NCBI GenBank assembly: GCA_045576595.1
Contig: JAZNGV010000031.1
Location: forward strand, 13,903-77,902
Reading direction: 5' to 3'
From: Paludibacteraceae bacterium
GTDB lineage: Bacteria > Bacteroidota > Bacteroidia > Bacteroidales > Paludibacteraceae
Length of the DNA stretch: 64,000 bases
The notes below the pieces were generated by a model, which was given only the letters and a program-made list of their open reading frames with translations, searched no databases and was not told the origin of the DNA. A program made the translations under genes and the position numbers. Positions within the stretch are counted from its first letter, which is position 1, and every line of letters begins with the position of its first letter. Below are positions 4,436 to 44,290 of this stretch, one piece after another.

Positions 4436-5605
4436 ATGCAAAAACTAACTATCCAAAGAACAAATGGTAATGTCCCTCGTGCACTTGCGGGAGAGGATCA
4501 CATTTCGGCTTTGTTGTTTTATCACAACACTCTGCCTGATGGATTTACCACAAATGACCGAATTAAAGCTGTATCAAGTATTGAAACGGCAGAAGGGTTA
4601 GGAATCACAGCAGATTCATCTGATTGGGGAATCCGTGTGTTGCATTACCAATTGACCGAGATTTTTAATCTCAATCCTGCGATTAGTCTGTATGTAGGAA
4701 TTTATTCCCCCGCCTCAGAAACAAGTACCTTTGCAGAAATTAAGAAGATACAGAACTTTGCAGGTGGTAGAATCCGCCAAATAGGCGTATGGAATGGTTC
4801 TGTAGCCATGACCACTACAGATCTTAATAGCTTGCAAAGCATTCGTACAACTCTTGAGCAGCAAAACATGCCATTGTCAATTTGCTATGCTCCAAAAGTG
4901 GGCGATGTTACCCAACTTGCGCAGGACATTGCAGGATCAAACCGCAACGGCGTTTCTGTGATTATCGGACAGGATGGTGCAGGAACAGCAGCAACACTCT
5001 ATGCTGATGAAAGTAATACAAGTAAAGCTTCTGTTACTGCTATTGGTGAGTGGATTGGTATTTGCTCTGCAGCTTCTGTACATGAGAGTATAGCATGGGT
5101 GGAGAAATTCCCAACTAAAATAGCATTGCCAGCTTTTGCTGATGGTACATTGTTACGCGATTTAGATTCGGCTATTATTGAAACGCTTGATACTGCGCGT
5201 TATTTGTTTTTCGTAACTTATGACGGCATTGCAGGTGCATATTTCAATGATTCACACACGATGGATTCTGCAACGAGCGACTATGCGTATATTGAGAATG
5301 TACGCACAATGGACAAAGCTGTGCGTGGTGTCCGCACCTACACATTACCAAAACTTGGTCGCCCTCTCAAAGTAGATGCTACTACAGGTAAATTAGAGAC
5401 CTATGTTGTAGAGGATTTGCAACTCACTGCAAACCGTGCTCTTGAAGCAATGGAGAAAGCGGGAGAGTTGAGCGGGTATTCCGTAGAGATTGATCCTGAT
5501 CAAAATGTGCTTGCCACATCAACCGTGGAAATGGTAATTAAGAATGTCGCTGTCGGAGTTATGCGTCAGTTGAAAATCAAAATTGGCTTTGCACAAAGTG
5601 TATAA
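4436..5605 (+). CDS. Tail sheath protein (probable)
   Basis: 389-aa ORF directly upstream of a ~150-aa tube-like ORF, a chaperone and the tape measure. This is the canonical myovirus order. Confidence 0.6.
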   Translation: MQKLTIQRTNGNVPRALAGEDHISALLFYHNTLPDGFTTNDRIKAVSSIETAEGLGITADSSDWGIRVLHYQLTEIFNLNPAISLYVGIYSPASETSTFAEIKKIQNFAGGRIRQIGVWNGSVAMTTTDLNSLQSIRTTLEQQNMPLSICYAPKVGDVTQLAQDIAGSNRNGVSVIIGQDGAGTAATLYADESNTSKASVTAIGEWIGICSAASVHESIAWVEKFPTKIALPAFADGTLLRDLDSAIIETLDTARYLFFVTYDGIAGAYFNDSHTMDSATSDYAYIENVRTMDKAVRGVRTYTLPKLGRPLKVDATTGKLETYVVEDLQLTANRALEAMEKAGELSGYSVEIDPDQNVLATSTVEMVIKNVAVGVMRQLKIKIGFAQSV

Positions 5606-6703: not shown

Positions 6704-8980
6704 ATGAGCAATTATTCTTTTAACTATTCTTTCAACATCTCGGGCAACTGTAATACGGTAGTCAATGAGATGGCAGAGGGTGTTAATACCCTCAAAAAGA
6801 ATCTATCAGAGGCAACCTCTTTTTGGGATTCTTTCGAGGGAAAATTGCTTGGTCTGAACCAATTTATAGAATACTTTGATCGGTTGGGTCAAAGCTTTGA
6901 GAATATGCAACGCCCTGGCGCAGAACTCAATGCTTCGCTTGCAGATCTACAAGCAATATCCAACGCTACAAGTAAAGAGTTAGAAACGATCGAGCGGTTC
7001 GCTCGTTCTACAGCAAAGGAGTTTGGCGGTTCTGCAGCACAATCTGTGGAATCGTACAAACTTTTGTTGTCCCAATTATCTCCTGAACTTACCAAGGATA
7101 GTGCAGCTCTTGCTGCAATGGGTAAGAATATCGCCATATTAAGTAAGACGATGGGTGGAGATACTACAGCAGCTGCTGAGGTCTTGACTACTGCGATGAA
7201 CCAATATGGTGTTTCGCTTGCGGATCCAATGGCTGCAAGTCGAAAAATGGCGGAAATGATGAACATCATGGCTGCCGCAGGTCGTGAGGGTTCTGCCGAA
7301 CTGCCAACAATAAAAGTTGCACTTGAGCAATGTGGTATGGCAGCCAAGGCTGCAGGCGTTTCATTTGCCGAAACTAATGCTGCGATACAGGTACTTGATA
7401 AAGCTGGTAAAAAAGGCAGTGAGGGTGGTGTTGCCTTGCGTAATGTTATGACTACACTTGCACGCGGGCGTTTCTTGCCTAAAGATGTACGCGAGGAATT
7501 GAATGCTGCAGGCGTTGATATTAACAAACTGACGGACAACTCCAAGAGCCTTGCAGATCGCCTTATATTCTTAAAGCCTGTAATGAATGACGCAGCTCTA
7601 TTTAGTAAATTATTTGGTCGTGAGAATACTAATGCTGCAATGGCGTTGATACAAGGCATTGATCAAGTAAAAGAATGGACAGAAGCCATTACAGGTACCA
7701 ATACTGCTGTAGAGCAAAGTCAAATCATTATGGAATCTTATAATGAACGACTTTCTCGCATACAATCCAATTTTGATAATTTCAAAATCTCCATTTTCAA
7801 TGTTACAGGAGATTTTGGTATTTGGATGTCCGTGATGATGAAATCACTAACCCCACTTGCCCAACTATCTCCTTTGATTATTGGTGTTGGAAAGGCAATG
7901 TTGTTTGTTCGTGCATTGGACTGGGGTGGTATGTGGAAAAAGATACGCAATCACATTATAGCGACTACAATTAGTCTTAACTCTCTTGGGATGACATTGG
8001 GATTGACCTCTATCAGTTTTACGGCATTCAAGACAGTTGCTGTTAATGCTTGCCGTGCCGTGAGTGTTGCGATTATGAATATCCCTATTCTTGGCTGGAT
8101 TGCAGCAGCTATTGCAGCTATCATTGCAATCATACAAACACTATGGAATAAATGCAAAGGATTTCGTGTGTTCATATTTACCACTTGGGAGGTTATTAAG
8201 CGAATCTTTGGAATGATAGGTATGCTGTTTAATAAGTTGTGGGGATGGATCACAGGTGGGGTAAAAGAAGCAACTGCAAAATTGACGGATTTCTTCCAAT
8301 GGTTTGTCGGGGCTATTCAAGAACCTATTGCAAAAGTAAAAGCTTTTTTTGGTTCTATTGGCGAATGGTTACGGAATGTGGGAACATTGATAGTTAATTC
8401 TATGCGAGGCGTCTTGGCGCGTTTTAAGGAACTTGGTCAGCGCATAAAATCTTGGGTATCTGGCATTGCTCAAACAATTGCCGATAAATTTTCTACAGTT
8501 TTCGAACCTTTGATAACCACATGCCAAGCTGCAATAAATAAGATTAAAGGATTTTTTGCAAAGGCGATTAATTGGATTCGTGATCAGTTTAATAGCGTCG
8601 TTGGTTGGATTGTTGAGGCATACAACAAAGCAGCAAAAGTATTCGGTTGGGAAGAAATTAAGGCGGCAGGTAAAGCACGAGCTGATGAAAGTTGGGGGGA
8701 AGATCACCCCGAGAATAATCCTGTAGGCGCAGGGACAGGTAGTTCTACAGTAGGTGGAGAGGGGTTTGTAGAAAATGATCCAATTGCAACAGGAATAAAC
8801 GGTATAGGTGGTTCTGCTGATAAAACTGATCGCATAAAGAACATAAACATTACCATTGATAAATTGATAGACACATTTACAATTCAAACAACGAACATGC
8901 AGGAAAGCACAGAACGCATAAAGGGTATGGTTGCCGAAGCCTTGTTATCTGCGGTTAATGATGTAAACCTTGCTTTGTAA
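6704..8980 (+). CDS. Tail tape measure protein
   Basis: 758 aa, the largest tail ORF, downstream of the frameshifted chaperone. It has an Ala/Gly-rich helical N-half (AKEFGGSAAQSVESYKLLLSQL), a central hydrophobic block and a Gly-rich C-terminus. Confidence 0.85.
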   Translation: MSNYSFNYSFNISGNCNTVVNEMAEGVNTLKKNLSEATSFWDSFEGKLLGLNQFIEYFDRLGQSFENMQRPGAELNASLADLQAISNATSKELETIERFARSTAKEFGGSAAQSVESYKLLLSQLSPELTKDSAALAAMGKNIAILSKTMGGDTTAAAEVLTTAMNQYGVSLADPMAASRKMAEMMNIMAAAGREGSAELPTIKVALEQCGMAAKAAGVSFAETNAAIQVLDKAGKKGSEGGVALRNVMTTLARGRFLPKDVREELNAAGVDINKLTDNSKSLADRLIFLKPVMNDAALFSKLFGRENTNAAMALIQGIDQVKEWTEAITGTNTAVEQSQIIMESYNERLSRIQSNFDNFKISIFNVTGDFGIWMSVMMKSLTPLAQLSPLIIGVGKAMLFVRALDWGGMWKKIRNHIIATTISLNSLGMTLGLTSISFTAFKTVAVNACRAVSVAIMNIPILGWIAAAIAAIIAIIQTLWNKCKGFRVFIFTTWEVIKRIFGMIGMLFNKLWGWITGGVKEATAKLTDFFQWFVGAIQEPIAKVKAFFGSIGEWLRNVGTLIVNSMRGVLARFKELGQRIKSWVSGIAQTIADKFSTVFEPLITTCQAAINKIKGFFAKAINWIRDQFNSVVGWIVEAYNKAAKVFGWEEIKAAGKARADESWGEDHPENNPVGAGTGSSTVGGEGFVENDPIATGINGIGGSADKTDRIKNINITIDKLIDTFTIQTTNMQESTERIKGMVAEALLSAVNDVNLAL

Positions 8981-8983
8981 GAT

Positions 8984-9646
8984 ATGAGAAACTATAATTT
9001 ACAAATAGTAAATGCTGCCTTGGTAGCTGCAAGTGTTGCGTCGCAGGTTGTGCGTCCATTACTGTATAAATTCAAGCCGTTAGATCAATCAGAAGCGACT
9101 GACTATAAACTTGGCGATTTGCGCAATCAGGTTGTATCATCCGCTGTTTCTACAGGAGATCGTTCTATTTCGCTTGCAGAAACAAAATGGCAAGGGAATG
9201 AGGATTATTGGCTGGGGCGTAATGTGCTAACAGATTTGGTTGTTCGTGTTCCTGAAAAGGGAGTACTAACAATCCCTGATGTAACAATCAATATATCAAA
9301 GCAGAAAGAAATTGTGAAGACTGCCATTGTGGGGCGTGCAGGAACCATTAAGGAATATATTACTGATGGCGACTATCAATTATCAATTAGTATTGGTATT
9401 GTGTCTGTTGATGAGAATAACCAAATCATTGACCAATATCCTGAAAGTGCTATCAGTACATTGCGCGAAGTCCTCGAAGAAAACCAATCGCTCGAAGCGA
9501 GTAGTACATTTTTGGATGTGTTTGGCATTAACAAAATTGTAGTGACTGGTTTTTCTGCAAAGCAAATGACATACGCCAATAGACAAGTTGTAGAGGTTTC
9601 TGCCTTGTCTGATGACGATTATATTATACAATCTACTGACTATTAA
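8984..9646 (+). CDS. Tail/baseplate-module protein, unknown function
   Basis: 220-aa ORF immediately after the tape measure gene. Called from position only. Confidence 0.4.
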   Translation: MRNYNLQIVNAALVAASVASQVVRPLLYKFKPLDQSEATDYKLGDLRNQVVSSAVSTGDRSISLAETKWQGNEDYWLGRNVLTDLVVRVPEKGVLTIPDVTINISKQKEIVKTAIVGRAGTIKEYITDGDYQLSISIGIVSVDENNQIIDQYPESAISTLREVLEENQSLEASSTFLDVFGINKIVVTGFSAKQMTYANRQVVEVSALSDDDYIIQSTDY

Positions 9647-9671
9647 ATACCGTTTAATCATTATTTAAGCC

Positions 9672-10631
9672 GTGCTTAAATTGTGTTCAAAAATAGAAAT
9701 TAAGGGTAGTAAGACATGGGTATTTGAAAAGATTACCTCATGTGAAATCGTGCGAGACATGGACGCACTGACTACGACTTGTACGCTTGTACTTCCTCGT
9801 AAAATACAATGGCAAGGAGAAAGTTCTAACCCTATCAAGCGCGGTGACCAAGTAACGGTATGGCTTGGCTATGATGATGATTTGCAATTGGCATTCCAAG
9901 GGTATGTGTTACAAAAGGGCTTTAAGGCACCTATAGAAATTAAGTGTGAGGATGAGATGTTTGTGTTGAAGCAAACACCTGCTGTCAAAAAGACATATAA
10001 GAATGTCACAGTTGAAAATCTGTTGAAAGATCAAAATCTAAATTACACACTCAAGGTGCTTGGGGAGCAAAATGTTGGGCAATATCGTGTAAATGTGGAC
10101 AATGTGGCTGAACTATTAGCACACCTTAAAGAAAATAGTATAAAAACATTCTTTCGTTTGGAAGATGAAAAACCTGTATTATATTGCGGTGTAATGTTTG
10201 ATCATAATACAGGCATACGACAAGTTTTTGAAACAGGTGTAAATATAATATCGGATAGTAGTCTTGATGAGCAAAATTCTGAAGATGTAAAGATAAAGTT
10301 AAAAGTCGTTAGTTTACAACCTGACAATAAGAATAAGATTAAGGTAGAGGTTGGGGATAATGACGGAGAACGTCGCACTATACATTGCTATGGAAAAAAT
10401 GAATCAGAGGCGAAAGCGTGGGGGGAGCAAGAATTGGAACGATTAAAGCGCGATGGACTTACAGGATCATTTACAACTTTCGGGCATGTGTTGCTTGATA
10501 GGCTTGACATTATTGGTGTAAAGATAAATGGTGAGCGCAAAGGTAAGTATCAAGTACAAAAGAATACAATCACATTTGGGGCGGGAGGATTCCGTCAAGA
10601 CATAACACTTGGAGCGAGGGTAGCAGAATGA
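9672..10631 (+). CDS. Baseplate hub / late-control-D (Mu P-like) tail protein (probable)
   Basis: 319 aa with GDQVTVWLGYDDDLQLAFQGYV-type N-terminal region. Its position matches gpD/Mu-P homologues. GTG start is uncertain. Confidence 0.5.
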   Translation: MLKLCSKIEIKGSKTWVFEKITSCEIVRDMDALTTTCTLVLPRKIQWQGESSNPIKRGDQVTVWLGYDDDLQLAFQGYVLQKGFKAPIEIKCEDEMFVLKQTPAVKKTYKNVTVENLLKDQNLNYTLKVLGEQNVGQYRVNVDNVAELLAHLKENSIKTFFRLEDEKPVLYCGVMFDHNTGIRQVFETGVNIISDSSLDEQNSEDVKIKLKVVSLQPDNKNKIKVEVGDNDGERRTIHCYGKNESEAKAWGEQELERLKRDGLTGSFTTFGHVLLDRLDIIGVKINGERKGKYQVQKNTITFGAGGFRQDITLGARVAE

Positions 10632-12069: not shown

Positions 12070-13215
12070 ATGAAAAACGAATTTAACACAGAGGAACTTC
12101 GCAATACAGCGGAGGAGATTCAAAATGCTGTAATGGCAAAAAGTATTACCCCCGAAATGGTCGGTGGCACATTGTTAGCGTTAGTTAATGCACAAGGCGA
12201 GGTAATCGAATCCTTTGGCAACTTTCAGCGCGAACGCGTAACGGTTAAGGTAAACGCTTACGATGGCAGTCAGCGTGCAGATGTGACAGGCGCAAAGGTT
12301 TATTTAGACATGTTCTCCGCAGGAACGCCAATTGTTAATGTGCCTCGTCAAGAGTTAGAGGTGGATGAAAATGGAGAGGTGTCATTTGAAGTTATACATG
12401 GATATCATTATTCTGTAGTGTCAAAGTTGGATGGCTTTGGAGCTTCGTTCCAACTTACATTTCAAGCTTCCCAAGAAAGTCGTATCATTGCATTATGGAA
12501 TTTGCCATTAGGTGTGTTCTATTTAGGTGCTGCTGGTTATTGGAGAGAAACAAATGAGGAGACAGGCGATGGTGTTTATCGCTACATTCCATACATAACA
12601 GAGGAATATATTAATGATTGGGATATGCGCAGAGAATATGCCGAATGGGGATTGACTGATGAAGAAACTTGGGACGATGATTATTATGGTTGGTTTATCC
12701 TTATATCTACAGAAAAAGGATCGTTTATGATAGACAGCGATTCTTATTCAGAAGACTATAAGACATGGACTTCAAATCGCTTCTATGGGAAAAATATCCC
12801 AACCATGCATGCATATGATTATGAAAATAGAGATTGGGAAATAGCTCAAGAGGAAGCTCGACAGGATATGGATGGCAATTTGAATACGGCAAAGCTACTT
12901 GCGTTCTGTGGATCAGAAGCCCCTGCAGCTGCATGGTGCGCAAATAGTCAGACCGATTATAGGATTAATCGTTGGCTTCCATCATGTGGCGAACTATATC
13001 TAATGTTCCTTAATGGATCAGTGATTGATTCGTTGATGGAACCTGCAATAGAGGATGGATATAACCTGCGTAAGATTCTTGATGATTATAACTGGCATTG
13101 GTCAAGTACTGAATGTAACGCGCGGTGTGCGTGGGGCGTGAGTATCGGCAACGGAGTCGCGGCAGCCGTAGGATTACCGCAACTATGTGCGTGCGGTGTC
13201 GGCTTTTCTCTTTGA
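12070..13215 (+). CDS. DGR variable (target) protein, DUF1566/C-type-lectin-fold-like C-terminus carrying the VR; probable receptor-binding tail protein
   Basis: C-terminus WLPSCGELYLMF...NWHWSSTECNARCAWGVSIGNG... The last ~30 codons are the VR. As read, the C-terminal 16 aa are out of frame relative to the TR-encoded motif. Confidence 0.8.
   Translation: MKNEFNTEELRNTAEEIQNAVMAKSITPEMVGGTLLALVNAQGEVIESFGNFQRERVTVKVNAYDGSQRADVTGAKVYLDMFSAGTPIVNVPRQELEVDENGEVSFEVIHGYHYSVVSKLDGFGASFQLTFQASQESRIIALWNLPLGVFYLGAAGYWRETNEETGDGVYRYIPYITEEYINDWDMRREYAEWGLTDEETWDDDYYGWFILISTEKGSFMIDSDSYSEDYKTWTSNRFYGKNIPTMHAYDYENRDWEIAQEEARQDMDGNLNTAKLLAFCGSEAPAAAWCANSQTDYRINRWLPSCGELYLMFLNGSVIDSLMEPAIEDGYNLRKILDDYNWHWSSTECNARCAWGVSIGNGVAAAVGLPQLCACGVGFSL
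13118..13215 (+). repeat. DGR variable repeat (VR) with IMH-like GC-rich 3' end
   Basis: Aligns to 13798-13900. 16 differences fall at TR adenines. The closing 20-mer ctatgtgcgtgcggtgtcgg (13183-13202) is identical. VR is 5 nt shorter than TR. Confidence 0.9.
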
Positions 13216-13235
13216 TTCTTAACCCTTTATCCTTT

Positions 13236-13262
13236 GCGCTTCGCTTTTTAGGAGCGAAGCGC
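13236..13262 (+). terminator. Perfect 10-bp hairpin + T-tract downstream of VR (terminator and/or DGR homing hairpin)
   Basis: gcgcttcgct-ttttagg-agcgaagcgc followed by ataaatttttttt, 21 nt after the VR/stop codon. Confidence 0.7.
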
Positions 13263-13307
13263 ATAAATTTTTTTTGAAAAATCTTTGATTATCCAACAAA
13301 AAAGCAG

Positions 13308-13315
13308 TACCTTTG
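13308..13315 (+). promoter_or_regulatory. Bacteroidetes -7 promoter box TAccTTTG for avd-TR-RT
   Basis: aaaaaagcagTAccTTTGcactcgaattATG. It shares its A-rich upstream context with other promoters in the window. Confidence 0.6.
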
Positions 13316-13325
13316 CACTCGAATT

Positions 13326-13691
13326 ATGGCAGCAAACACAGCAAAAGCATATAAGGATATGTATCAGATTATACAAATGATGTGTAGTCTGTCGGATAGT
13401 GTACCTGTAAAATGGCGACGTTGGTTGTGGGAAAAAGCACTTGATACAGCGAGTGATCTCATTGCGCTTATTGTGTATGCCTACGATGAGAAAAGCCTAC
13501 AAACAAAACTTGCATACATAGACAAGTGCCTTACCAAATTTACAGTACTTAATACTTATTTGCGATTGAGCAATGAGAATGCCATAATACCTACTCAAAA
13601 ATTTGTGAATATATCGGAACTAATGGCTGATATTTCCCAACAGTTAGCTGCGTGGCGCAAAGGCACGGCTGAGAGACTAAAAGGTGTGTAA
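13326..13691 (+). CDS. avd: Accessory variability determinant (Avd, four-helix-bundle protein)
   Basis: 121-aa helical, basic ORF (KWRRWLWEKALDTASDLIALIVYAYDE...AAWRKGTAERLKG) located between the target gene and the TR. Confidence 0.75.
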   Translation: MAANTAKAYKDMYQIIQMMCSLSDSVPVKWRRWLWEKALDTASDLIALIVYAYDEKSLQTKLAYIDKCLTKFTVLNTYLRLSNENAIIPTQKFVNISELMADISQQLAAWRKGTAERLKGV

Positions 13692-13797
13692 ACGAGTGTC
13701 CCAACGGTTACGGCTTTTGGGAGTGAGTAATTTTCTTAATGAAAAGGTCTGCGTACTCTCATTTAGAGTTAAGAGCAAGTTAATCGCAGAAGAAAAT

Positions 13798-13900
13798 GCG
13801 CGTGGTGTGCGTGGAACGTGAATATCAACAACGGAAACACGAACAACAACAATAGGAATAACAACAACTATGTGCGTGCGGTGTCGGAATTTCATTTGAA
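13798..13900 (+). repeat. DGR template repeat (TR)
   Basis: AAC/AAT-rich: it would encode CAWNVNINNGNTNNNNRNNNNYVRAVSEF. Non-coding position between avd and RT. It is the invariant partner of VR 13118-13215. Confidence 0.9.
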
Positions 13901-13901
13901 A

Positions 13902-15542
13902 ATGGAAAACATACAGGGAAATATCGCCATTACTTACGATAGCCTCGAAATAGCATATCGTGATTGCCGCAGAAATAAATCAGGTTCTGCAAATGCTATT
14001 GCGTATGAGATGTTCTATGAGGCTAATCTACTCCGTTTGCGTGATGAGATAAACGCACGCACATATACTCCCCAAGAATCCATTGCCTTTATTGTAAACA
14101 AGCCTGTGCAGCGCGAGATATTTGCTGCTAATTTTCGTGACCGTGTCGTTCATCATTGGATCGCTTTGCGCATTGAGCCGTTATTGGAGCGGGTTTTTAT
14201 AGATGAAAGCTTTAATTGTCGCAAGGGGAAAGGTACACTTGCTGGCATACTGTATTTGCGTGACGCTATTCGACAAAAGTCGGAGAACTATACGCGCGAT
14301 TGTTGGGTGCTTAAATACGATTTGAAAGGCTTTTTTATGTCAATTAACCGTGAGCGCGTCACAGATAAGTTGTGTCGGTTTATTGATGAGCGTTACAAAG
14401 GAAATGATAAAGATACGCTCATTTTTCTATGTCGCCAAATACTACTTAATGCCCCCGAAAAGAATTGCAAAATTAAGGGAACAAAGTCCGAATGGGTTGG
14501 TTTGTCAGCGGATAAAAGTTTGTTTACTGTGCCTGATGGATTTGGATTGCCAATTGGGAACCTGACATCGCAACTCGTAGCAAATTTCTTGCTGAATGAC
14601 GCGGATCACTATTGCAAGGAGGTGTTAGGTTTGGATATAGATCGCTATGTAGATGATACCTCAACTCCCGACACGGAAAAAGAGAAACTATTGGCTGCTA
14701 TGCCTCTTGTTCGACAATATCTTTTGGAAAGCGCAGGTGCTATTATACATCCGCATAAATTTTATTTACAACATTATACTAAAGGGGTTAAGTTTATTGG
14801 CTGTGTAATAAAAAAGGATAGATTATATCTTGCTAATCGCACTGTTGGTAATGCGTATAAACGCCTGCATAAGTTCAACGAATTAGCAGCTAATAATCCG
14901 CTGTTTGTGCGAAAACATGCCGAGTATTTTGTTAGTTGTATAAACTCCTATCTTGGTTTGATGAAGCATTGTAACGCGTATGGTTTGCGTCGTGATTTCA
15001 TTGCAGCTATAGGGAGTGAGTGGCATAAAGTTATAACTGTTGATCCTGATTATACTAAACTTATCGTAAAACCAAAATTCAAACATAGAGAGCGCATTCG
15101 TTATGTGCTCCGCCGTCAAAGGCATAAAATATCAATAACCAAAATTCAAAACAAACAAATGACAGCACGAGATTTTAGTACGGTTGATAAAGCCGTCGCC
15201 GTTGAGCAACTCAACATCAATCGCAAAAAGGGTTGTGTCGTGAGATGGGATTTCGAGCCTGTTAAGAACAAAATTCCTCTTAAACCTACAAACAAACCGA
15301 AACGGAGCAAGGGTAAGCCTGTGCCTAAAACCGACCAAGTACAAGTAGAGGGTCAAGACTACAAAGAAACAGTATCAAAGTTTGTTTCTTTCTCTGTTAA
15401 GTCTTATCCAATACTCCCAACAGCCGATGAGGTGATCGCGGATATTGAGGCGGATTTGACTGCACGCTATTCCGAAGATAATCGTCCTGCGATTGATCTT
15501 AATGCGTACCGCGAAGCTATTAACAAATTGCACACCTCTTAA
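13902..15542 (+). CDS. DGR reverse transcriptase with ~140-aa basic C-terminal extension
   Basis: PIGNLTSQLVANFLLN (DGR-type SQ motif) and IDRYVDD catalytic box. ATG 13902 is preferred because the track start 13818 lies inside the TR. Confidence 0.85.
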   Translation: MENIQGNIAITYDSLEIAYRDCRRNKSGSANAIAYEMFYEANLLRLRDEINARTYTPQESIAFIVNKPVQREIFAANFRDRVVHHWIALRIEPLLERVFIDESFNCRKGKGTLAGILYLRDAIRQKSENYTRDCWVLKYDLKGFFMSINRERVTDKLCRFIDERYKGNDKDTLIFLCRQILLNAPEKNCKIKGTKSEWVGLSADKSLFTVPDGFGLPIGNLTSQLVANFLLNDADHYCKEVLGLDIDRYVDDTSTPDTEKEKLLAAMPLVRQYLLESAGAIIHPHKFYLQHYTKGVKFIGCVIKKDRLYLANRTVGNAYKRLHKFNELAANNPLFVRKHAEYFVSCINSYLGLMKHCNAYGLRRDFIAAIGSEWHKVITVDPDYTKLIVKPKFKHRERIRYVLRRQRHKISITKIQNKQMTARDFSTVDKAVAVEQLNINRKKGCVVRWDFEPVKNKIPLKPTNKPKRSKGKPVPKTDQVQVEGQDYKETVSKFVSFSVKSYPILPTADEVIADIEADLTARYSEDNRPAIDLNAYREAINKLHTS

Positions 15543-15554
15543 ACGACAGACACA

Positions 15555-16532
15555 ATGGCACGTTCATTAAATGAGATAAAGGCGGAAATAGCCACCGCCT
15601 TTATCTCCCAAGAAGTGGTGCGTAATGCGTATGGTTTGGATGATAATGCTACTTTCGATAAGGTGTTTTCGCCTGTTAGTATTGAGAGTATTCTTTTCGA
15701 TGTCGTTGCTTCTTGTATATGGGTGGTTGAAAGCCTGTTTGATCGCCATAAGTTAGAGGTAGAAACAAGAATAGAAGCATTGCGTCCGCATACACTGCGT
15801 TGGTATGTTTCCAAGACGCTTGAGTATATGCACGGAAAAAGTCTAAAGCCTGTTTCAAAAGATGGAGTTGTGATCGCTGACTATTACGACACGAAAGATA
15901 TGCCCGAGAGTGAGATAGAAAAGAAACGTATCGTAAAATATGCAGTAGCAACGGAAAGTAATACGCATGTTCTGATAAAAGCTGCTGGCTCAAATGACGG
16001 TCGTCCCAAAAAACTCAATACAGAACAACTGAATGGTTTGAGTTGGTATCTTTCGCAGATTAAAGACGCAGGTGTTAATCTTCGGGTAATCAGTGAGGAC
16101 GCTGATCAGATGAATGTTGAGTTGTATGTTCGGTATGATCCAACCGTTTTGCAAGCAGAGCTCTTAACGGATAAAGAGAATGAATATCTCGCTACCGAGA
16201 ACACATTCTATACAAATGCCGATCGTGCGTCAGGGTATCACTTAATCCGTTTAAGCCCTATTGATGATGTACAAACAGACATTTTGGATAATGTTGTATG
16301 TGATGTCATTACCCACTTGCCTTTTAATGGAGAGTATAGGAACTCCGATTTGCTTGCTGCTATACAATCTATAAATGGCATAGAGGTGGCAGATATATGT
16401 AAGGTAGAAGTTTGCGCTGCAAGTGCAACAGGCGTATATACACCTGTCATCGGATATCGCCGTCCTTATAGTGGTTATTATGAATTAACAAACCTTGTTG
16501 TTAAGGGTAAACCTTACATTACAGCCGAATGA
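15555..16532 (+). CDS. Baseplate J-like protein (Mu gp47 position)
   Basis: 325-aa ORF following the baseplate genes. The N-terminus MARSLNEIKAEIATAFISQEVVRNAYGL resembles baseplate J family starts. Confidence 0.5.
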   Translation: MARSLNEIKAEIATAFISQEVVRNAYGLDDNATFDKVFSPVSIESILFDVVASCIWVVESLFDRHKLEVETRIEALRPHTLRWYVSKTLEYMHGKSLKPVSKDGVVIADYYDTKDMPESEIEKKRIVKYAVATESNTHVLIKAAGSNDGRPKKLNTEQLNGLSWYLSQIKDAGVNLRVISEDADQMNVELYVRYDPTVLQAELLTDKENEYLATENTFYTNADRASGYHLIRLSPIDDVQTDILDNVVCDVITHLPFNGEYRNSDLLAAIQSINGIEVADICKVEVCAASATGVYTPVIGYRRPYSGYYELTNLVVKGKPYITAE

Positions 16533-18926: not shown

Positions 18927-19775
18927 ATGTCAAGCAAAACAAATGAATCTGTGCAGATTTTCAAAGAATCTACTGCACTTGGTAGGCTTCTAATTAAGCC
19001 TGTAAGCAAAGCCGTTGCTCGCGAGATGATCATTGCAAATCACTACTCGCACAAATGGAACGATGGTGGCTTTGGAGTGTTTAATTTCGGGATATTCCAT
19101 GCTGATGAACCCGACCGTTGTCTTGGAGTGGCTGTCTATGGTTACATGAAGAACCCACGCGCAAAGACCTTTACGCACCCTAATCCTAAAGCGTGGGTGT
19201 GTGAACTTAATCGCATGTGGATAGATGATGAACTTGGACGCAATGCCGAGAGTATTTTAATAGCAGCGTCTATTAAGTTATTACGCCGCCTTGACCCTAA
19301 TTGTGTTGCTGTGCAAAGTTTCGCAGACGGTCGCCTTGGTTGCGGAACAATCTACAAAGCTTCAAACTTTCGGTATTTTGGTTTCCATCATACCATTTTC
19401 CTGCGCAATAAACGATCAGGCGAAATTATCCATCAACAGATATGCACTAATACAACCTCAAAGGCTGCTTATATTCGCGCAAATGTTGCGTATTTGATTG
19501 GCGATTTCGATGTACTTATTGTCAAAACATATCGTTATATTTATCCGCTATGCAAGCATTTTCGTTCTGTATTTAAGGAGCAACCTTATCCCGCATACGA
19601 TAAAGGATATGTCGCAGGCGAGTGGAAGCGTGATAAAGAAACAATCAGACAGCGTTGCGTTAAAATGCTTGCAGAATTAGATTTATCTGTTTATGAGAAA
19701 CCTGTAAAGCGTGTAGGTTCTTCAAAAGCCAAGAATCCAGCAAATAATGCAGAGAACTCTAAAGTAGCAGCTTAA
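18927..19775 (+). CDS. Mom-like GNAT-fold DNA-modification protein (adenine methylcarbamoylation family) - tentative
   Basis: ANHYSHKW...LGVAVYG...CELNRMW...QSFADGRLGCGTIYKASNFRYFG...YRYIYPL resembles my recollection of the Mu Mom-family pattern. It is the last gene of the prophage, as mom is in Mu. Confidence 0.45.
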   Translation: MSSKTNESVQIFKESTALGRLLIKPVSKAVAREMIIANHYSHKWNDGGFGVFNFGIFHADEPDRCLGVAVYGYMKNPRAKTFTHPNPKAWVCELNRMWIDDELGRNAESILIAASIKLLRRLDPNCVAVQSFADGRLGCGTIYKASNFRYFGFHHTIFLRNKRSGEIIHQQICTNTTSKAAYIRANVAYLIGDFDVLIVKTYRYIYPLCKHFRSVFKEQPYPAYDKGYVAGEWKRDKETIRQRCVKMLAELDLSVYEKPVKRVGSSKAKNPANNAENSKVAA

Positions 19776-23478: not shown

Positions 23479-24771
23479 ATGATTGAACGTTACAGCCGCG
23501 CAGTCATGCGCAACATTTGGACAGAAGAGAATAAGTTCAATGCTTATCTCGAAGTAGAAATCTTGGCTGCTGAGGCGTGGAGCACCTTGGGTGTTATCCC
23601 AGCAGAAGATGTACAACTCTTGCGTGAGAAAGCTACATTCAATATCGACCGCATCCACGAGATAGAAGAAATCACTCGTCACGATATCGTTGCTTTCACC
23701 CGCACAGTGAGCGAGTCGTTAGGCGAAGAGAAAAAATGGGTACACTACGGACTTACCTCTACCGACATAGTGGATACCGCGAATGGATATTTGCTCAAGC
23801 AAGCCAATGAGGTGTTGCGCAAAGATTTGCACTCTTTCTTGGAAGTGTTGAAGCGCCGCGCGAATGAGTTCAAATACACACCTGTTATCGGTCGTACCCA
23901 CGGCATGCACGCCGATGTGAGCAGTTTTGGTCTCAAGTGGGCATTATGGTACGAAGAGATGCGCCGTAACTTAGAGCGCTTCGAGATGGCAGCCAAAGGT
24001 GTAGAGGCAGGTAAATTGTCTGGCGCGGTAGGTAACTACGCGAATATCCCACCAGCAATCCAAACCTATGTATGCGAGCACCTTGGCATTGAGTCGGCTG
24101 CGATAGCCACACAAGTGTTGGGTCGCGACCGCCATGCCTTCTACTTGGCTACGCTTGCAGTTATCGCCGGTACGCTTGAGCAAATGGCATTGGAGGTACG
24201 TAATATGCAGCGCCAAGAAGTGCGTGAAGTGGAAGAAGCTTTCCGCAAGGGACAGAAAGGTTCTTCGGCTATGCCACATAAGCGCAACCCTATTTCATCG
24301 GAGAATATTTGCGGTTGTGCGCGAGTGATGCGCGGATACATGTGTACTGCGAGCGAGAACATCGCCTTGTGGCACGAGCGTGACATATCCCATTCCTCTA
24401 CAGAACGCATCGTGCTGCCTGACGCAACCATGCTGCTCGATTATATGTTGGCACGCTTCGAGGGCATCCTCGATAACCTCGTAGTTTATCCAGAGAATAT
24501 GCTTCGCAATATTGGTCTCACCCACGGAGCTATCTTCGCACAGCGAGTGATGAATGCACTGATAGAGAAGGGTTTTGTGCGTGAGCAAGCATATGACCTC
24601 GTACAACCTGTGGCAATGAAGACGCTGATGGAAGGTGGCGAGATGCAAGAAAATCTCAAACTCACCGAAAGTGTGACAGCACATCTGAGCAACGAGGAGA
24701 TTGACGCATGCTTTAGTTTGGATTATTACATGAAGAATGTAGATTATATCTTCCAGCAAGTAGGTATCTAA
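23479..24771 (+). CDS. purB: Adenylosuccinate lyase
   Basis: MIERYSR..MRNIWTEENKF..., GLTSTDIVDTA and SSAMPHKRNP signature. Start moved to 23479 because the track start reads through the REP element. Confidence 0.92.
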   Translation: MIERYSRAVMRNIWTEENKFNAYLEVEILAAEAWSTLGVIPAEDVQLLREKATFNIDRIHEIEEITRHDIVAFTRTVSESLGEEKKWVHYGLTSTDIVDTANGYLLKQANEVLRKDLHSFLEVLKRRANEFKYTPVIGRTHGMHADVSSFGLKWALWYEEMRRNLERFEMAAKGVEAGKLSGAVGNYANIPPAIQTYVCEHLGIESAAIATQVLGRDRHAFYLATLAVIAGTLEQMALEVRNMQRQEVREVEEAFRKGQKGSSAMPHKRNPISSENICGCARVMRGYMCTASENIALWHERDISHSSTERIVLPDATMLLDYMLARFEGILDNLVVYPENMLRNIGLTHGAIFAQRVMNALIEKGFVREQAYDLVQPVAMKTLMEGGEMQENLKLTESVTAHLSNEEIDACFSLDYYMKNVDYIFQQVGI

Positions 24772-24774
24772 CCA

Positions 24775-24830
24775 CTAATCGCTAATCACTAATCGCTAAT
24801 CGCTAATCACTAATCACTAAACGCTAAACA
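24775..24830 (+). repeat. Tandem heptamer array (ctaatcR x8)
   Basis: ctaatcg ctaatca ctaatcg ctaatcg ctaatca ctaatca ctaaacg ctaaaca, starting 4 nt after the purB stop. Confidence 0.9.
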
Positions 24831-24845
24831 TAAATACAATAATAT

Positions 24846-31760: not shown

Positions 31761-31816
31761 AATTCTAAATTATAAAATCTAAATTCTAAATAGTACTTTG
31801 TACATTGTACATTTTC

Positions 31817-34054
31817 TTAATGTTTCTCAGGGCGTGGACCACGACGCTCTGGACGAGGACCGCGATCGCCGCGTGGCGCACGAGCAGGACGCTCTGGCTC
31901 TACATAATCCGCTGGTTTCTCTTTGAGCACCTTAGCACTGAGGCGGAACTTGCCGGTCTTAGGATCTACTTCCATCAGTTTGATAGTGATCTTATCACCC
32001 TCTTTGATGCCAGTCTCTTCCATCGTCTCGTAGCGCTTCCAGTCAATCTCGCTGATGTGGAGCAAACCTTCTTTACCAGGCATGAACTCAACGAAGCAAC
32101 CATAAGGCATGATGGATTTAACCACTGACTCATATACTTCGCCTACCTCTGGCAATGCCACGATAGCTTTGATCTTAGCCACAGCTGCAGCCATTGAATC
32201 GCCGTTGTTAGAAGCTACTTCTACCTTACCGCCCTCTTCTACCTCTTCGATAGAGATCACTGCGCCGGTCTCTGCTTGGATACCTTGGATAATCTTACCA
32301 CCAGGACCAATCACTGCGCCGATCATGTCTTTTGGAATCATGAAGGAAACGATGCGTGGAGCTTGTGGCTTGAGGTCTGCGCGTGGAGCAGGCATGCACT
32401 CGAGCATCTTGCCGAGGATATGCATACGCGCCTCGTGGGCTTGCGCCAAAGCGTTCTCTAAGATCTCGTATGATAGTCCGTCCACCTTGATATCCATCTG
32501 ACATGCGGTCAAACCATCCACAGTACCTGTGGTCTTGAAGTCCATATCACCGAGGTGGTCCTCATCACCGAGGATGTCGGATAAGATAGCATATTTAGTA
32601 CCTTTGCACTCAGAGATAAGACCCATCGCGATACCACTCACTGGTTTGATCATAGGCACACCTGCGTCCATGAGTGCGAGTGTTCCTGCGCATACAGTAG
32701 CCATAGAAGAAGAACCGTTAGACTCCAAGATGTCGCTCACCACGCGTACGGTGTATGGGAAATCAGCTGGAACCATATTCTTCAGCGCACGGCAAGCAAG
32801 GTTACCGTGACCTATCTCACGACGACCTACGCCACGGCTTGGGCGAGCCTCGCCTGTAGAGAATGGAGGGAAGTTATAATGCAATAGGAATTTATCATTA
32901 CCTTGGATAAGTGCCTCGTCAACAATCTTCTCATCGCGTTTGGTACCGAGTGTAACGGTAGAGAGCGATTGAGTCTCACCACGGGTGAAGATAGATGAAC
33001 CGTGAGGACCTGGCAGTGGGCTCACTTCGCACCAGATAGGACGAATCTCGGTAGTGGTACGACCATCCAAACGCTTACCCTCATCGAGCACAGCACGGCG
33101 CATAGCCTCTTTCTCTACATCGTGGTAGTATTTATCTACGAGCGCAGTGATATCATCCACATCAACACCTAATGCTTCGGCGCGAGCAGCCATGTATTCA
33201 GCCTTCTCTGCCTTGAAATCCTCGCGTATCTGTGTGAACATCGCCTCGCGGTGGTGCTTGTCAGTGTCCGCACTGGTAGCTTGCGCATAAGCGCGAGCAT
33301 AACTGTATTCGTGTACGGCTTGCTTGAGTTCGTCATCGTTAATCTCGTGGCAGTACTCGCGCTTAACCTCCTTGCCATAAGCCTTCATCATCTCATCGAT
33401 AGCCAAGCATTGTGGCTTGATAGCCTCGTGAGCTGCCTTGATAGCCTCAAGCATCACGCTCTCTGGCACCTCTTTCATCTCACCCTCAACCATCATGATG
33501 TTATCATAGGTAGCGGCAACCATCAACTCGAGGTCAGCTTGCTCGCATTGCTCGAAAGTAGGGTTGATAACCATCTCGCCATTCACACGAGCTACGCGTA
33601 CCTCGCTCACAGGACCCTCGAAAGGAATATCGGAGCAAGCCAAAGCTGCACCAGCTGCCAAACCAGCGATGGACTCAGGCATGTCAATGCCGTCAGCAGA
33701 GTACATGGTTACATTCACAAAAGTGTCTGCGTGATAATTAGATGGGAATAATGGACGGAGAGCGCGGTCGATAAGACGAGCGATAAGAATCTCATAGTCC
33801 GATGCTTTTCCTTCGCGGCGAGTGAAACCACCAGGGAAACGACCCGCTGAAGCGAACTTCTCTTTGTACTCCACGGTAAGAGGCATGAAGTCCGTACCAG
33901 GAACAGCGTCTTTTGCAGAGCAAACGGTGGCCAAAATCATGGTGTTACCAAGTGTTGCCATCACGGCTCCGTCTGCTTGTTTTGCTAATTTGCCTGTCTC
34001 CAGCGTGATAACACGACCATCAGGCAAAGCAATTTCTTTTCTTACAATATTCAT
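31817..34054 (-). CDS. pnp: Polyribonucleotide nucleotidyltransferase (PNPase)
   Basis: 745 aa with two RNase PH domains, KH and S1 domains and an Arg/Pro/Gly-rich tail. Confidence 0.95.
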
Positions 34055-34292: not shown

Positions 34293-34682
34293 GGGGCTAT
34301 CTGGTTTTGACAGCAGGTAGATTGGATATGTAAGCACGCCGAGCTTTGAGGATATGCTCGTAAATATCATTCTTAAGCTATAACTGGCAACAATACTGTA
34401 GCTCTCGCTGCTTGATCGAAGTATAGTAGATCGCATTATTCGGGTACAAGGTGCCTGAACGGGACGTCGCTCCAAGCCGAGTTCGCGGGCTGATAGGACT
34501 AAGCGGCGCGGAAATACGCGAAATAGAATTCGTAGGCTGCGATGCGGATTTGAAACCTTAGCAGATAAGCCGATAGTTGGTGGCTTGGGTCTTGCTATCG
34601 GACGAAAATGAAGGCCAAGATAAGCGTGTAGAAAGCATATACGGTCCTTGTTTGGACGCGGGTTCGACTCCCGCTAGCTCCA
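34293..34682 (+). ncRNA. ssrA: tmRNA (SsrA), tag reading frame GNNTVALAA*
   Basis: 5' ggggctatctggttttgacagc pairs with 3' tagctcca. The T arm is gcgggttcgactcccgc. The tag ORF ggc aac aat act gta gct ctc gct gct tga lies at 34386-34415. A conserved aagataagcgtgtagaaagc block is present. Confidence 0.9.
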
Positions 34683-34718
34683 CTCGCGAATTAAAATTCG
34701 TCGGGGACCCCAAAGGGA

Positions 34719-34760
34719 TACATCGTACATTGTACATTGTACATTGTACATCGTACATCG
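34719..34760 (+). repeat. Tandem heptamer array (tacatYg x6)
   Basis: tacatcg tacattg tacattg tacattg tacatcg tacatcg. Related short runs occur at 31796-31818 and 43993-44013. Confidence 0.9.
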
Positions 34761-34784
34761 TCCTTGATATAACATTCAATCAAT

Positions 34785-37095: not shown

Positions 37096-37169
37096 GGCCC
37101 CGTAGCTCAACTGAATAGAGTGTCAGATTCCGGTTCTGAAGGTTCTGGGTTTGAACCCCAGCGGGGTCA
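37096..37169 (+). tRNA. tRNA-Arg (anticodon CCG)
   Basis: Acceptor GGCCCCG/CGGGGTC, anticodon arm TCAGA-TTCCGGT-TCTGA, T arm CTGGG-TTTGAAC-CCCAG. Confidence 0.85.
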
Positions 37170-37172
37170 CAG

Positions 37173-37204: not shown

Positions 37205-37270
37205 GTCCTAGTTCCCTAGCAATCCTGTAGGGCTTTGCCCGTCCTGTAGGCGCTTGTCGCCGTCCTGTAA
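37205..37270. repeat. Array of GTCCTGTAGG + mini-hairpin units, copy 1
   Basis: tcctgtagGGGCtttGCCCg tcctgtagGCGcttgtCGCcg tcctgtaa. The last unit supplies the stop codon of the minus-strand gene ending at 37273. Confidence 0.8.
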
Positions 37271-37272
37271 TC

Positions 37273-38680: not shown

Positions 38681-38755
<75 letters not shown>

Positions 38756-39105: not shown

Positions 39106-40917
39106 TTATTGCACCTTATTGCCCATTACGGTGTATGTATGTTCTCCTTTTTGGATGTATAGTTGTCCGTTGTGGATGTATTTGGTGGGCGTTGGGGTAT
39201 AGTCTATGTTCTCCACTTCTGTGTGAACATATTTGAGTTTTCTATCGAACCATACGACGCGGTTTTCGATGTATTTCTTCAGGTAGTCCACTTCGGCTTG
39301 GTACGACCCGCGCGAGGTAGGGTTCATATGTACATTAGAGTTGAGGATGGGCCAGCGTAGGAAGTTGAGTCGTTGCGATTGTTGTAGTGTTTGTGCTTGT
39401 TGGTCTATATAGGCGCATAGGCTACCTGTGTCAATGCCTGTCCATCGTGCTTGTATCCATGTGATGAGTAGTTGGTCTGCTCCTTGCGAGGAGTTAATCA
39501 CTTTGTCGGTCAGTGTGCGCATATATCCCACGGTACTACCGCCTGAGCGATATACATAATCGTTCTTGTTATTCACAGGGTAGGTGCGATAGTCGTTGTC
39601 GAATGCGATATCGAAATCCCATACGGGTCCCACAAAGAGGGTGTCGTTCTCGCGCTGCTTGTACATGTAGGTGCTCCAATAAGTGTCGGTATTACCCGAT
39701 AACTCACCCACGATAAAATGGCGTAGGAAGGTATTGTAATCTAAGTACTGCGCGTACTTATTCTCCATGAGGCTGAAATGCGAAGCGATGTAATTCTTTT
39801 GCTCTGGAGTTATCTCTTCTTCGTCTGGTGATTTGATGGTGACGGGTGTACCTCGTTGCGAATAGAAATAGCTTATTTCTGTGTCGGCGTAGCCATCCAC
39901 TTCGATGAAGTAACCTCCTGTGAGTGCTTCGCCGCTGTTGTCGGTGGGTTCCATCTCTTTGATATTCACTCTGTTCTTATCCACTTCAATCTGGTCGCAC
40001 AACTGATAGCACCCTTTGTATTCGCCATTGAGCAGCACATTGACATGTGCGCAGAATGGCGTATAAGGCATATTCAGTCGTTTGCTTATTTCGTATGCTA
40101 ACGGGTTGCGCAGCAGTGTTTTATCGCCATAGTTATTGATGAGCGTCCATTTCTTGGCTTTGGCTGGTGAACCCAATACGGACTGCTTGTGTTCAAACTT
40201 AATACGGTATGGTTTTTTAGGGAATTGGCGTGAAGCGTTACCTCGTTCGCGGATGGTGATAGTATCCGATAAGATATGTTTGCCATCTTGCGAGATGATA
40301 GATACATAGCCCTCTATATCTGTTTCTTTGTCAAAAGGTATTTGGTTGTCTTTGGTGTGTATGGTGACGACGGGTATATTGGTCAGTTGGCATAACTGCG
40401 AGTCATCTCCTTCGCCTTGCTCTCCATAAAACTCCAATTCGGCTATTCCGCTTCTCATGCTGTATGGTCCTACATAGCGTACATACCTAAACCCTCGTGA
40501 ACATTTCACGGAGGTGTAGTTCATTTGTCCCACCAATGACTCGTTGTCTATGAGGTGTAGCGGTACGGCGTCCATAAAGTCGGGTCGGTTAGAGCCCTCA
40601 AAAATGCCTAAGAGCACGCCGTTAGGTCCTACGGAGTTCTTGCGTGGTGCCCATCCTACTATGGTGATGATATGTGGTGACCCGAGGTCCAGTCCTACCC
40701 ATCCGTAGGACACATCCCATGCTGCGAAATAGGAGTCCATGCTGCCGTCGAATGCCATCTGAGCGGTATTGACGCTGAAGGATGGATTGCCCGTGTTGTT
40801 ATAGTCGAAAGAACCATACGAACTGATGGGTGTGCCTGTTAGTTTCGTGTCAGCGTATAGAGAAGAAATGCCGCATAAGAGGGCAACGAGGAGAAAGGAG
40901 AGTGGTTGGAGTCTCAT
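39106..40917 (-). CDS. CotH-family protein with N-terminal discoidin (F5/8 type C)-like domain
   Basis: 603 aa with a signal peptide and a central YRIKFEHKQSVLG...WTLINNYGDKTLLRNPLAYE...VLLNGEYKGCYQLCDQIEV block typical of CotH. Confidence 0.6.
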   Translation of the reverse strand: MRLQPLSFLLVALLCGISSLYADTKLTGTPISSYGSFDYNNTGNPSFSVNTAQMAFDGSMDSYFAAWDVSYGWVGLDLGSPHIITIVGWAPRKNSVGPNGVLLGIFEGSNRPDFMDAVPLHLIDNESLVGQMNYTSVKCSRGFRYVRYVGPYSMRSGIAELEFYGEQGEGDDSQLCQLTNIPVVTIHTKDNQIPFDKETDIEGYVSIISQDGKHILSDTITIRERGNASRQFPKKPYRIKFEHKQSVLGSPAKAKKWTLINNYGDKTLLRNPLAYEISKRLNMPYTPFCAHVNVLLNGEYKGCYQLCDQIEVDKNRVNIKEMEPTDNSGEALTGGYFIEVDGYADTEISYFYSQRGTPVTIKSPDEEEITPEQKNYIASHFSLMENKYAQYLDYNTFLRHFIVGELSGNTDTYWSTYMYKQRENDTLFVGPVWDFDIAFDNDYRTYPVNNKNDYVYRSGGSTVGYMRTLTDKVINSSQGADQLLITWIQARWTGIDTGSLCAYIDQQAQTLQQSQRLNFLRWPILNSNVHMNPTSRGSYQAEVDYLKKYIENRVVWFDRKLKYVHTEVENIDYTPTPTKYIHNGQLYIQKGEHTYTVMGNKVQ

Positions 40918-41849: not shown

Positions 41850-42037
41850 GGTAGTGTTCAGTTTTCAGTTGTCAGTGTCGCGTTCGGCAAATGGGTTGCA
41901 TTAGACGATACCGCTCTGCTAAATCGTAGGTGCAACCATTGCCTCCGCTCTTAACTCGGACTATCGCTTGCGCTAGCAGTCCTCGTTAGTATTATATTTT
42001 TATTTTGTTTTCTTTATTTTTGTATTAATAAGCACAT

Positions 42038-42120
42038 CGTCCTGTAGGCGCTTGTCGCCGTTCTGTAGCTCCGCGTCCTGTAGGGCTCTGCCCGTCCTGT
42101 AGGCGCTTGTCGCCGTCCTC
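42038..42120. repeat. Array of GTCCTGTAGG + mini-hairpin units, copy 2
   Basis: cgtcctgtaggcgcttgtcgc cgttctgtagctccg cgtcctgtagggctctgcc cgtcctgtaggcgcttgtcgc cgtcctc. It ends at the rlmI stop codon. Confidence 0.8.
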
Positions 42121-43964: not shown

Positions 43965-44290
43965 TTTTTTAGTAGTGAGTACAGAGTAGTGAGTACTTTG
44001 TACATCGTACATCGTCCCTTTGTCACTTCGCCTTCCCGCATCCTATATGCTATCTATCTTATCCAGAAATCTAGAGATCCAGAAATCAGGAGTTCCAGCC
44101 CCTTTGTCACTTCGCCTTGCCCCTGTCCTTAAAGTCCTTAGAGACCTTAGAGACCTTACAGTCCTTACAAAAAAAATCACATATTCCACTCCATCAATTT
44201 GCATATGTCAAAAAAAAGTGCTATCTTTGCACTTATTTGTTATGTCATCGCGGGTGATTCACGGGATATTCACGGGATATAGTCGCGTTA
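43965..44290. repeat. Mosaic of short direct/tandem repeats in a 420-bp intergenic spacer
   Basis: agtagtgagtac x2; tacatcg x2; cctttgtcacttcgcctt x2 (44017, 44101); atccagaaatc x2; ccttaNaNN x5 (44128-44172); attcacgggat x2 (44257-44278). Confidence 0.8.

Follow-up and report, generated by a model that had tools for sequence, protein, structure and literature searches.

The 64,000-nucleotide stretch analysed here (the window), from a Paludibacteraceae bacterium (GenBank assembly GCA_045576595.1, contig JAZNGV010000031.1, positions 13,903 to 77,902), harbors on its plus strand, at positions 12070-15542, a complete diversity-generating retroelement (DGR) with the gene order target, avd, template repeat (TR), and reverse transcriptase (RT), whose variable repeat (VR) at the 3' end of the target gene is 5 nt shorter than the TR. 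The RT is of the DGR type by its motifs IGNLTSQ and YVDD, readable in the translation of 13818-15542, and its length equals that in relatives. The Avd protein was recognized by PF22296 with a score of 38.2 bits, slightly below the curated 40-bit cut-off, and a precomputed Pfam match is available for the identical Avd protein in public contigs; the public assembly index lists this protein in 81 blocks. The TR shares the reading frame of the RT, within the open frame from GTG 13818, and public gene calls begin the RT at GTG 13872 inside the TR (556 aa) and not at ATG 13902. Beyond the last A-to-N site, the VR ends in an invariant segment with an imperfect repeat (GG CT TTTC TC versus GG AA TTTC A in the TR counterpart), which is identical or nearly so across all relatives and, by analogy with the Bordetella phage BPP-1, would act as the initiation of mutagenic homing (IMH) sequence. 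The hairpin downstream of it folds better than shuffled controls (0 of 200 shuffles fold equally well) and occupies the position of the stem-loop or cruciform of DGRs; a role as terminator is also conceivable. No second VR for this TR was found in the 64-kb window at up to 3 mismatches, leaving a single VR and a single TR. The locus thus displays an RT of the proper type, adenine-restricted differences between TR and VR, an Avd, and a 3'-terminal VR with IMH-like repeat and hairpin, as expected for a DGR; TR and VR, which would likewise be expected to agree in length, differ in it.

Two short anchors shared by both repeats define this difference: TGTGCGTGG is located at 13126 in the VR and at 13806 in the TR, and CTATGTGCG at 13183 and 13868, respectively, such that the spacing from one to the other amounts to 57 nt in the VR versus 62 nt in the TR. 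Along the same lines, the repeat finder split the VR/TR pair into two families with start-to-start distances of 680 and 685 nt, equivalent to a 5-nt shift. The repeat as such is beyond a chance match, because the 19-mer TATGTGCGTGCGGTGTCGG occurs in exactly two copies in the window, with 0.01 expected. Gap models were enumerated exhaustively under the condition that each non-adenine position of the TR be conserved, and the sole class of two-gap solutions combines a loss of 4 nt with a loss of 1 nt, within the intervals compiled in Table 1; MAFFT placed the 4-nt gap after 13161 and the 1-nt gap after 13172. Neither a single 5-nt gap nor the 3+2, 2+3, and 1+4 models preserved all non-adenine positions. 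Both deletions fall in the A-rich AAC tracts of the TR, the adenine rule is obeyed on both sides, and the 15-18 substitutions required by the 4+1 model (the number depends on gap placement) are all at adenines of the TR core. Close to the 5' edge of the VR there is, in addition, a T-to-C exchange at 13123 which is private to the window, as the TR and all relatives have T. An unequal length of TR and VR leaves the element inside the DGR family, 7% of curated DGRs being alike in this respect.

The consequence for the target protein is a change of frame. The TR frame reads ...NINNGNTNNNNRNNNNYVRAVSEF, and the open reading frame (ORF) that contains the VR ends in ...CAWGVSIGNGVAAAVGLPQLCACGVGFSL with its stop codon at 13213-13215. 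The net loss of 5 nt shifts the invariant VR 3' end to the +1 frame, such that ...VGLPQLCACGVGFSL and a stop replace R...YVRAVSAFLFDS, and the target carries the C-terminus ...LCACGVGFSL in place of ...YVRAVSAFLFDS. Read in frame, this tail would be ...YVRAVSAFLFDS followed by TAA at 13220-13222, the stop site of the genes of the relatives. The original prediction, made from the sequence of the window, had stated that the VR is shorter than its TR and that the canonical C-terminal motif is out of frame, and this core claim holds. Its anchor positions and spacings, its translations of the TR frame, of the VR ORF, and of the in-frame ending could all be reproduced, and its gaps (4 nt in the AAC tract, 1 nt at TR 13855-13856) are among the placements allowed by the enumeration.

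Table 1. Features of the DGR locus and of its surroundings in the window (positions are those of the window).
Feature	Position	Strand	Remarks
DGR target (variable protein) gene, frameshifted allele	12070-13215	+	381 aa, tail-fibre-like; from ORF listing
Variable domain of target	C-terminal end of the 12070-13215 product	+	putatively Lcl_C/DUF1566-type
VR	13119-13203	+	5 nt shorter than TR; at 3' end of target ORF
Non-adenine substitution in VR, T to C	13123	+	W to R (NAWCAW to NARCAW); alignment with L001-L010
Junction interval of 4-nt deletion	13158-13164	+	missing bases start at TR 13838-13844, AAC ACG AAC AAC AAC; placement ambiguous
Junction interval of 1-nt deletion	13171-13181	+	missing base is one of TR 13855-13865, AAT AAC AAC AAC
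Invariant VR 3' end and imperfect repeat past last A-to-N site (IMH-like)	13184-13215	+	intact; from sequence reading
G+C-rich 12-bp hairpin, then T-rich run	13235-13263	+	downstream of VR; -17.7 kcal/mol, z = -3.9
avd accessory gene	13326-13691	+	121 aa; PF22296 bAvd, E = 2.2e-9
TR with IMH*-like 3' end	13799-13899, core to 13888	+	A-rich, (AAC)n codons
DGR RT, intact	13902-15542	+	546 aa from ATG; RVT_1, E = 6e-15
Tape-measure protein	6704-8980
Baseplate-hub proteins	8984-10631
Mom homologue, last prophage gene	18927-19775		PF25680
Host genes purD, folD, purB, carAB, pnp	from 20630

Close relatives of the locus were gathered through the identical Avd protein in public assemblies and, for IMG/VR and JGI, by scans for exact VR/TR patterns. 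The set comprises L001-L010, ten flank-bearing loci with an identity of 96-98.5% across 6.3 kb, plus one IMG/VR contig and two contigs from JGI metagenomes; the pattern scan of the GTDB species-representative genomes returned zero matches, as did megablast and blastn searches of 12070-15600 against the INPHARED phage collection. Look-ups of exact proteins likewise gave no match for the target of the window, the RT from its ATG, the 119-aa protein encoded upstream, and purD. Full-length VRs were obtained from L001-L010, the IMG/VR contig, and one JGI contig, and all 12 have exactly the length of the TR, which answers the comparison of VR lengths in related prophages proposed along with the original prediction. 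Between the anchors GGTGTGCGTGG and GTGCGTGCGG there are 57 nt in the TR and the VR of every relative, and 52 nt only in the VR of the window. In the VRs of the relatives, 11-20 of the 31 TR adenines are changed, against 0-1 of the 53 remaining positions, and each of the 12 ends in ...VRAVSAFLFDS and a stop, within proteins of 385 or 386 aa. The TR is identical to that of the window in L001-L011 and L014; in L012 it carries one single-nucleotide polymorphism (AAC to AAT), which reappears at the matching position of the VR of L012 itself and directly shows the flow of information from TR to VR. This natural marker transfer is found in IMGVR_UViG_3300045988_165945 (L012/L013), with the TR at 4737-4832 and the VR at 4055-4150 of L012. 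Because only L012 departs from the common TR sequence, and because the VRs of the relatives have the length of the TR, the VR of the window is the derived side. Judged from the compared sequences, the DGR is active in the phage species of the window, the TR length is ancestral, and the shortened VR is derived and exceptional.

In the 6.3 kb aligned with the ten relatives, the two indels of the VR are, alignment edges aside, the only ones private to the window, and no neighbouring gene deviates in length from its counterpart in the relatives. Therefore, the contig resembles neither an indel-prone assembly nor a decayed prophage. L011 (Logan SRR30782170) encodes an identical RT protein and belongs to another strain with 13 synonymous differences; its contig begins just upstream of the TR, with the edge 55 nt before the TR core, and does not include the VR.

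The wider protein family provides a second frame of reference. A homology search down to 38% identity delivered 120 cluster representatives, nearly all of which end in (Y/D)VRAVSAF(H/L)F.., and when 64 homologues (identity as low as 40%) are aligned, each residue of V-R-A-V-S-A-F is at least 90% conserved. Frameshifted tails are present in 4 of about 118 full-length representatives, a proportion to be read with the tendency of frameshifted alleles to form clusters of their own and hence to be over-represented. Apart from the window, P0064 and P0076 end in ...RRAGGVGFSF, in the same +1 frame, and P0035 ends in ...YVRGVRFSFQILGF. Compared with its own TR, which is of canonical length in each case, the VR is longer by 1 nt in P0064 (locus L016) and by 4 nt in P0076 (L017), and shorter by 2 nt in P0035 (L105/L106), all of these loci stemming from Logan-collection assemblies, L016 from run SRR30592956. 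The insertions of 1 and 4 nt satisfy the adenine rule on either side, whereas the deletion of 2 nt requires one extra non-adenine mismatch; the allele with this deletion was recovered in the assemblies of two runs (SRR22923215/16). P0121, the cluster mate of P0064, has the normal in-frame ending, and P0052 is an in-frame length variant whose VR is 6 aa (18 nt) shorter than that of its mate P0122; the P0052 locus, L104, ends ahead of its TR, and the reference for the shortening is P0122. On the alignment of these endings, the frameshifted tails are sporadic defective alleles and not an alternative natural C-terminus. Homologues naturally ending in a sequence of the LCACGVGF type, which the original prediction had named as counter-evidence, did not emerge, the +1-frame tails being sporadic among the 120.

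Two of these loci deserve separate description. In L017 (Logan ERR14038614), in the VR near 2860-2900, the +4 insertion is compatible with an RT that re-copied the template GAAA, and the two copies differ in their adenine substitutions (GAAC, GCTA), which points to a duplication at the level of the RT rather than of the DNA. In L105/L106, the -2 deletion lies in GCGCGC of the invariant 3' part, a non-adenine G-to-C exchange is found in the VR, and the RT ORF is shorter (417 aa, then a separate 121-aa ORF), such that this may be a decaying DGR.

The structural meaning of the lost tail was considered with an AlphaFold2 model of P0002, the closest intact relative (96% identical; pLDDT 87.8, pTM 0.85, the predicted local distance difference test and template modelling scores). 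In this model, WHWSSTE, CAWxVx, the variable loop, and AVSAF (residues 378-381) form successive C-terminal strands, with AVSAF as the last. Its top match in the PDB was the type V pilin-like 4EPS, and no solved Mtd or TvpA chain was among the matches listed; in BFVD it matched phage tail-fibre and DUF1566 proteins (best E = 4.4e-16; DUF1566 protein A0A7M1S0D6, TMt 0.51). A model of the C-terminal 136 residues alone reached a pLDDT of 49.6, the cut having removed part of the domain. In an alignment of the family profile with a solved structure, 8q4e, the last 41 profile positions coincide with its C-terminus, ...YWSS...AAVRAVRAF (E = 0.002). PF07603 (Lcl_C) matches the intact P0002 weakly (E = 0.0047, 17.6 bits versus a cut-off of 34.9), it is weak as well in 31 of the 64 homologues (best 4.1e-6), some homologues have a precomputed PF07603 match, and the window protein has none at E ≤ 0.01. 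The closing strand ...(Y/D)VRxV..., present in 8q4e and in the VRs of all 12 close relatives, is lost in the window allele. Since VRAVSAF is conserved, is modelled as the last strand, and was accompanied by a weak Lcl_C match that is now gone, the loss of the invariant arginine and of the final strand probably destroys the domain.

Among the three explanations that the original prediction had offered, an aberrant, slippage-prone retrohoming is the best supported, and the VR of the window is probably the product of such a mutagenic event, carried by a lysogen and open to repair. The DGR itself, otherwise intact and recently active, would diversify a C-terminal domain of the C-type-lectin-like Lcl_C/DUF1566 kind in a tail-fibre-like protein. 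While copying the adenine-rich (AAC)n of the TR RNA, the RT would have lost the cDNA register twice, two of three incorporations being possible mispairs; it would have skipped 4 nt in AAC ACG AAC AAC AAC and 1 nt in AAT AAC AAC AAC. Both deletions could stem from one cDNA, or from two successive and partly overlapping homings, the later of which converted only the 3' part. The shortened, adenine-mutagenised cDNA would then have replaced the VR, leaving a frameshifted receptor-binding allele that is probably non-functional, and such a null allele could persist if the tail protein of a prophage is not under selection in the lysogen. The next retrohoming would reset the VR to full length and into frame, as may be expected because the TR, avd, the RT, the 5' and 3' homologies of the VR, and the hairpin are all intact. 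Self-repair of this kind is plausible because the reconstituted BPP-1 DGR used its TR to restore a target with an 18-nt deletion (PMC12875486); for the same reconstituted system, a template slippage model has been proposed to account for the errors of bRT and their spectrum (PMC12875486).

Several points weigh against aberrant retrohoming. A single VR with two separate indels would be improbable if such events were rare and independent of each other, and simple repeat slippage gives no direct explanation of -4 and -1, since the AAC unit has 3 nt and neither number is a multiple of it. The exact allele of the window was seen nowhere else, the cluster of its protein (P0001, an identical entry in NCBI) being a singleton, and the conservation of VRAVSAF, on which the loss of function is argued, may in part reflect a constraint at the DNA level, on the homology between IMH and TR, and not folding. 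Finally, the source contig is almost certainly metagenomic, in which case its VR is a consensus over a possibly heterogeneous population.

This last point is the basis of the foremost rival explanation, an artefact of assembly or consensus, in which many in-frame VR variants coexist in the population, 5 bases were dropped from their consensus, and no molecule of this kind exists; we regard it as a possibility to be taken seriously, yet an unlikely one. The host is uncultured, and its PNPase is 88-92% identical only to proteins of uncultured Paludibacteraceae/Bacteroidales metagenome-assembled genomes, from which a metagenomic origin is most likely. The VRs of DGRs are known to break or confuse assemblies (PMC8008677), as the truncated contig of L011 may recall, and the bases are missing exactly in the hypervariable A-derived columns of an allele that has no second copy. 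On the other hand, a de Bruijn chimera of in-register haplotypes requires a shared (k-1)-mer at a 4-nt offset, and the TR permits at most 20 compatible positions at a shift of 4, with many variable bases having to coincide, which excludes k > 21 and makes k = 21 very unlikely. Indel noise of the long-read type is contradicted by the 6.3 kb free of further private indels and by the intact neighbours. Furthermore, comparable indels recur in the three other family members described above, one of them in two runs.

Ordinary decay after retrohoming, by errors of replication or repair unrelated to the RT in an unselected prophage gene, would account for the -4, the -1, and the T-to-C exchange at 13123 together, and it is this private non-adenine substitution in the VR, along with the presumed lack of selection on a prophage tail gene in the lysogen, that speaks for it. 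Yet the present VR is non-repetitive and offers no substrate for replication slippage; it is in the TR, and not in the VR, that AAC tracts face the indels, in line with the survey of Wu et al.; about 60 nt contain both indels and the substitution, the rest of the 6.3 kb having no private indel; and the remaining DGR and prophage module are intact, so that decay appears improbable. Least credible of all is the third explanation of the original prediction, a tolerated or useful variant in which ...LCACGVGFSL would be foldable and would widen DGR diversity, an idea raised by Wu et al. for non-canonical mutagenesis: the +1 frame stops no more than 7 nt short of the normal stop, the protein loses only 4 aa in length, and similar +1-frame tails (...RAGGVGFSF) exist in P0064 and P0076, but the canonical (V)RAVSAF-type ending of nearly all 120 homologues and of all 12 close VRs, the canonical-length TRs of P0064, P0076, and P0035, the in-frame sister of P0064 (P0121), the removal of the invariant arginine and the final β-strand of the modelled domain, and the absence of even the weak Lcl_C match of the intact relative contradict it.

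With aberrant retrohoming as the preferred reading, the closest precedent is the survey of Wu et al. 2018 (PMC5758913), in which TR and VR differed in length in 25 of 372 DGRs, 11 of these differences were frameshifting, and 74% of the indels adjoined AAC, with template slippage being proposed as the cause. The assumption of the original prediction that retrohoming normally preserves length is true in general; in view of these documented exceptions, the novelty it attached to the case was overrated. The window shares with their examples (Fig. 4C-E) the AAC-adjacent, non-triplet change of length that frameshifts the end of the variable protein, together with one non-adenine substitution, and the present family, with 4 of about 118, comes near to the frequency in their survey, 11 of 372. 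In contrast to their cases, two separate deletions (-4, -1) are combined in one VR, 12 near-identical in-frame relatives make the polarity explicit (VR derived, TR unchanged), and the Mu-like Paludibacteraceae prophage is absent from their set. Thus, Wu et al. had already described both the phenomenon and the cause proposed for it, and the window is a well-controlled new example and not a new kind of system.

With the mtd-avd-TR-brt cassette of Bordetella phage BPP-1 the element has in common the order target, avd, TR, RT, the adenine-specific changes, the location of the VR at the C-terminus of a tail protein of the receptor-binding type, and the G+C-rich invariant VR 3' end with a hairpin downstream. 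The target, however, is not Mtd; pilin-like β-sandwich domains (4EPS as top match) are combined with a variable domain putatively of the Lcl_C/DUF1566 type, the host belongs to the Bacteroidales, the phage is Mu-like (terminal Mom gene, variable flanks), and the VR is out of frame. A structural counterpart may be 'domain group 1' of the Bacteroides DGRs described by Macadangdang et al. (bioRxiv 10.1101/2024.11.15.621889), with a C-terminal VR on a variant C-type-lectin-like fold, a type V pilin-like N-terminal part (4EPS), and prophages of gut Bacteroidales as carriers; here the host family is Paludibacteraceae. Frameshifted VRs are unmentioned in that work, the single mention of indels being generic background.

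The DGR cassette forms part of the tail/baseplate module of a Mu-like prophage, whose host is an uncultured member of the Paludibacteraceae. What comes after the Mom gene varies between the window and other metagenomes (L018-L023), with purD in the window and aspartyl-tRNA synthetase in L023; because of these differing neighbours, the sequence indicates a Mu-like transposable Bacteroidales phage with a DGR in its baseplate module. Upstream of the tail module, apparently inside the prophage, a tRNA-Met is located at 500-572, which is 80% complementary over 75 nt to the opposite-strand tRNA-Met at 38681-38755 in the host part, and it may be phage-encoded. The host part contains several repeats: tandem heptamers (GTACATT/GTACATC)n at 34711-34777, directly after the tmRNA gene (34293-34683), and also at 43979-44031 and 31765-31817; tandem heptamers (CTAATCG/CTAATCA)n at 24768-24837, directly after the purB-like ORF; and a repeat of roughly 50 nt made of GTCCTGTAGG-type units in three copies (37223-37272, 42021-42125), adjoining a tRNA-Arg (37096-37170) and also found upstream of the ORF at 42120-43337. 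A CotH kinase-family protein, unusual in Bacteroidales, is encoded on the minus strand of the host part at 39106-40917 (PF08757, E = 4.6e-46).

In annotations, the 381-aa product is best marked as a probably frameshifted allele or a possible error of the consensus rather than as a novel variant of the C-terminus. It is tempting, if very doubtful, to see in the loss of register on (AAC)n a built-in and reversible OFF switch that the next event resets from the intact TR. If true, a few percent of retrohomings would yield non-functional receptor-binding alleles (-5, +1, +4, and -2 in this family), phage or lysogen would silence and re-express the tail protein in a manner resembling phase variation, and the non-triplet steps would imply a slippage rule unlike the model of multiples of three in AAC repeats. 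Irrespective of such a switch, the value added by this locus lies in its explicit polarity, with a constant TR and 12 in-frame sister VRs, and in the series of non-triplet shifts -4, -1, +1, +4, and -2, which bear on the engineering of TRs for DGR-based mutagenesis that avoids frameshifts and could inform models of how the RTs of DGRs lose and regain register on adenine-rich templates.

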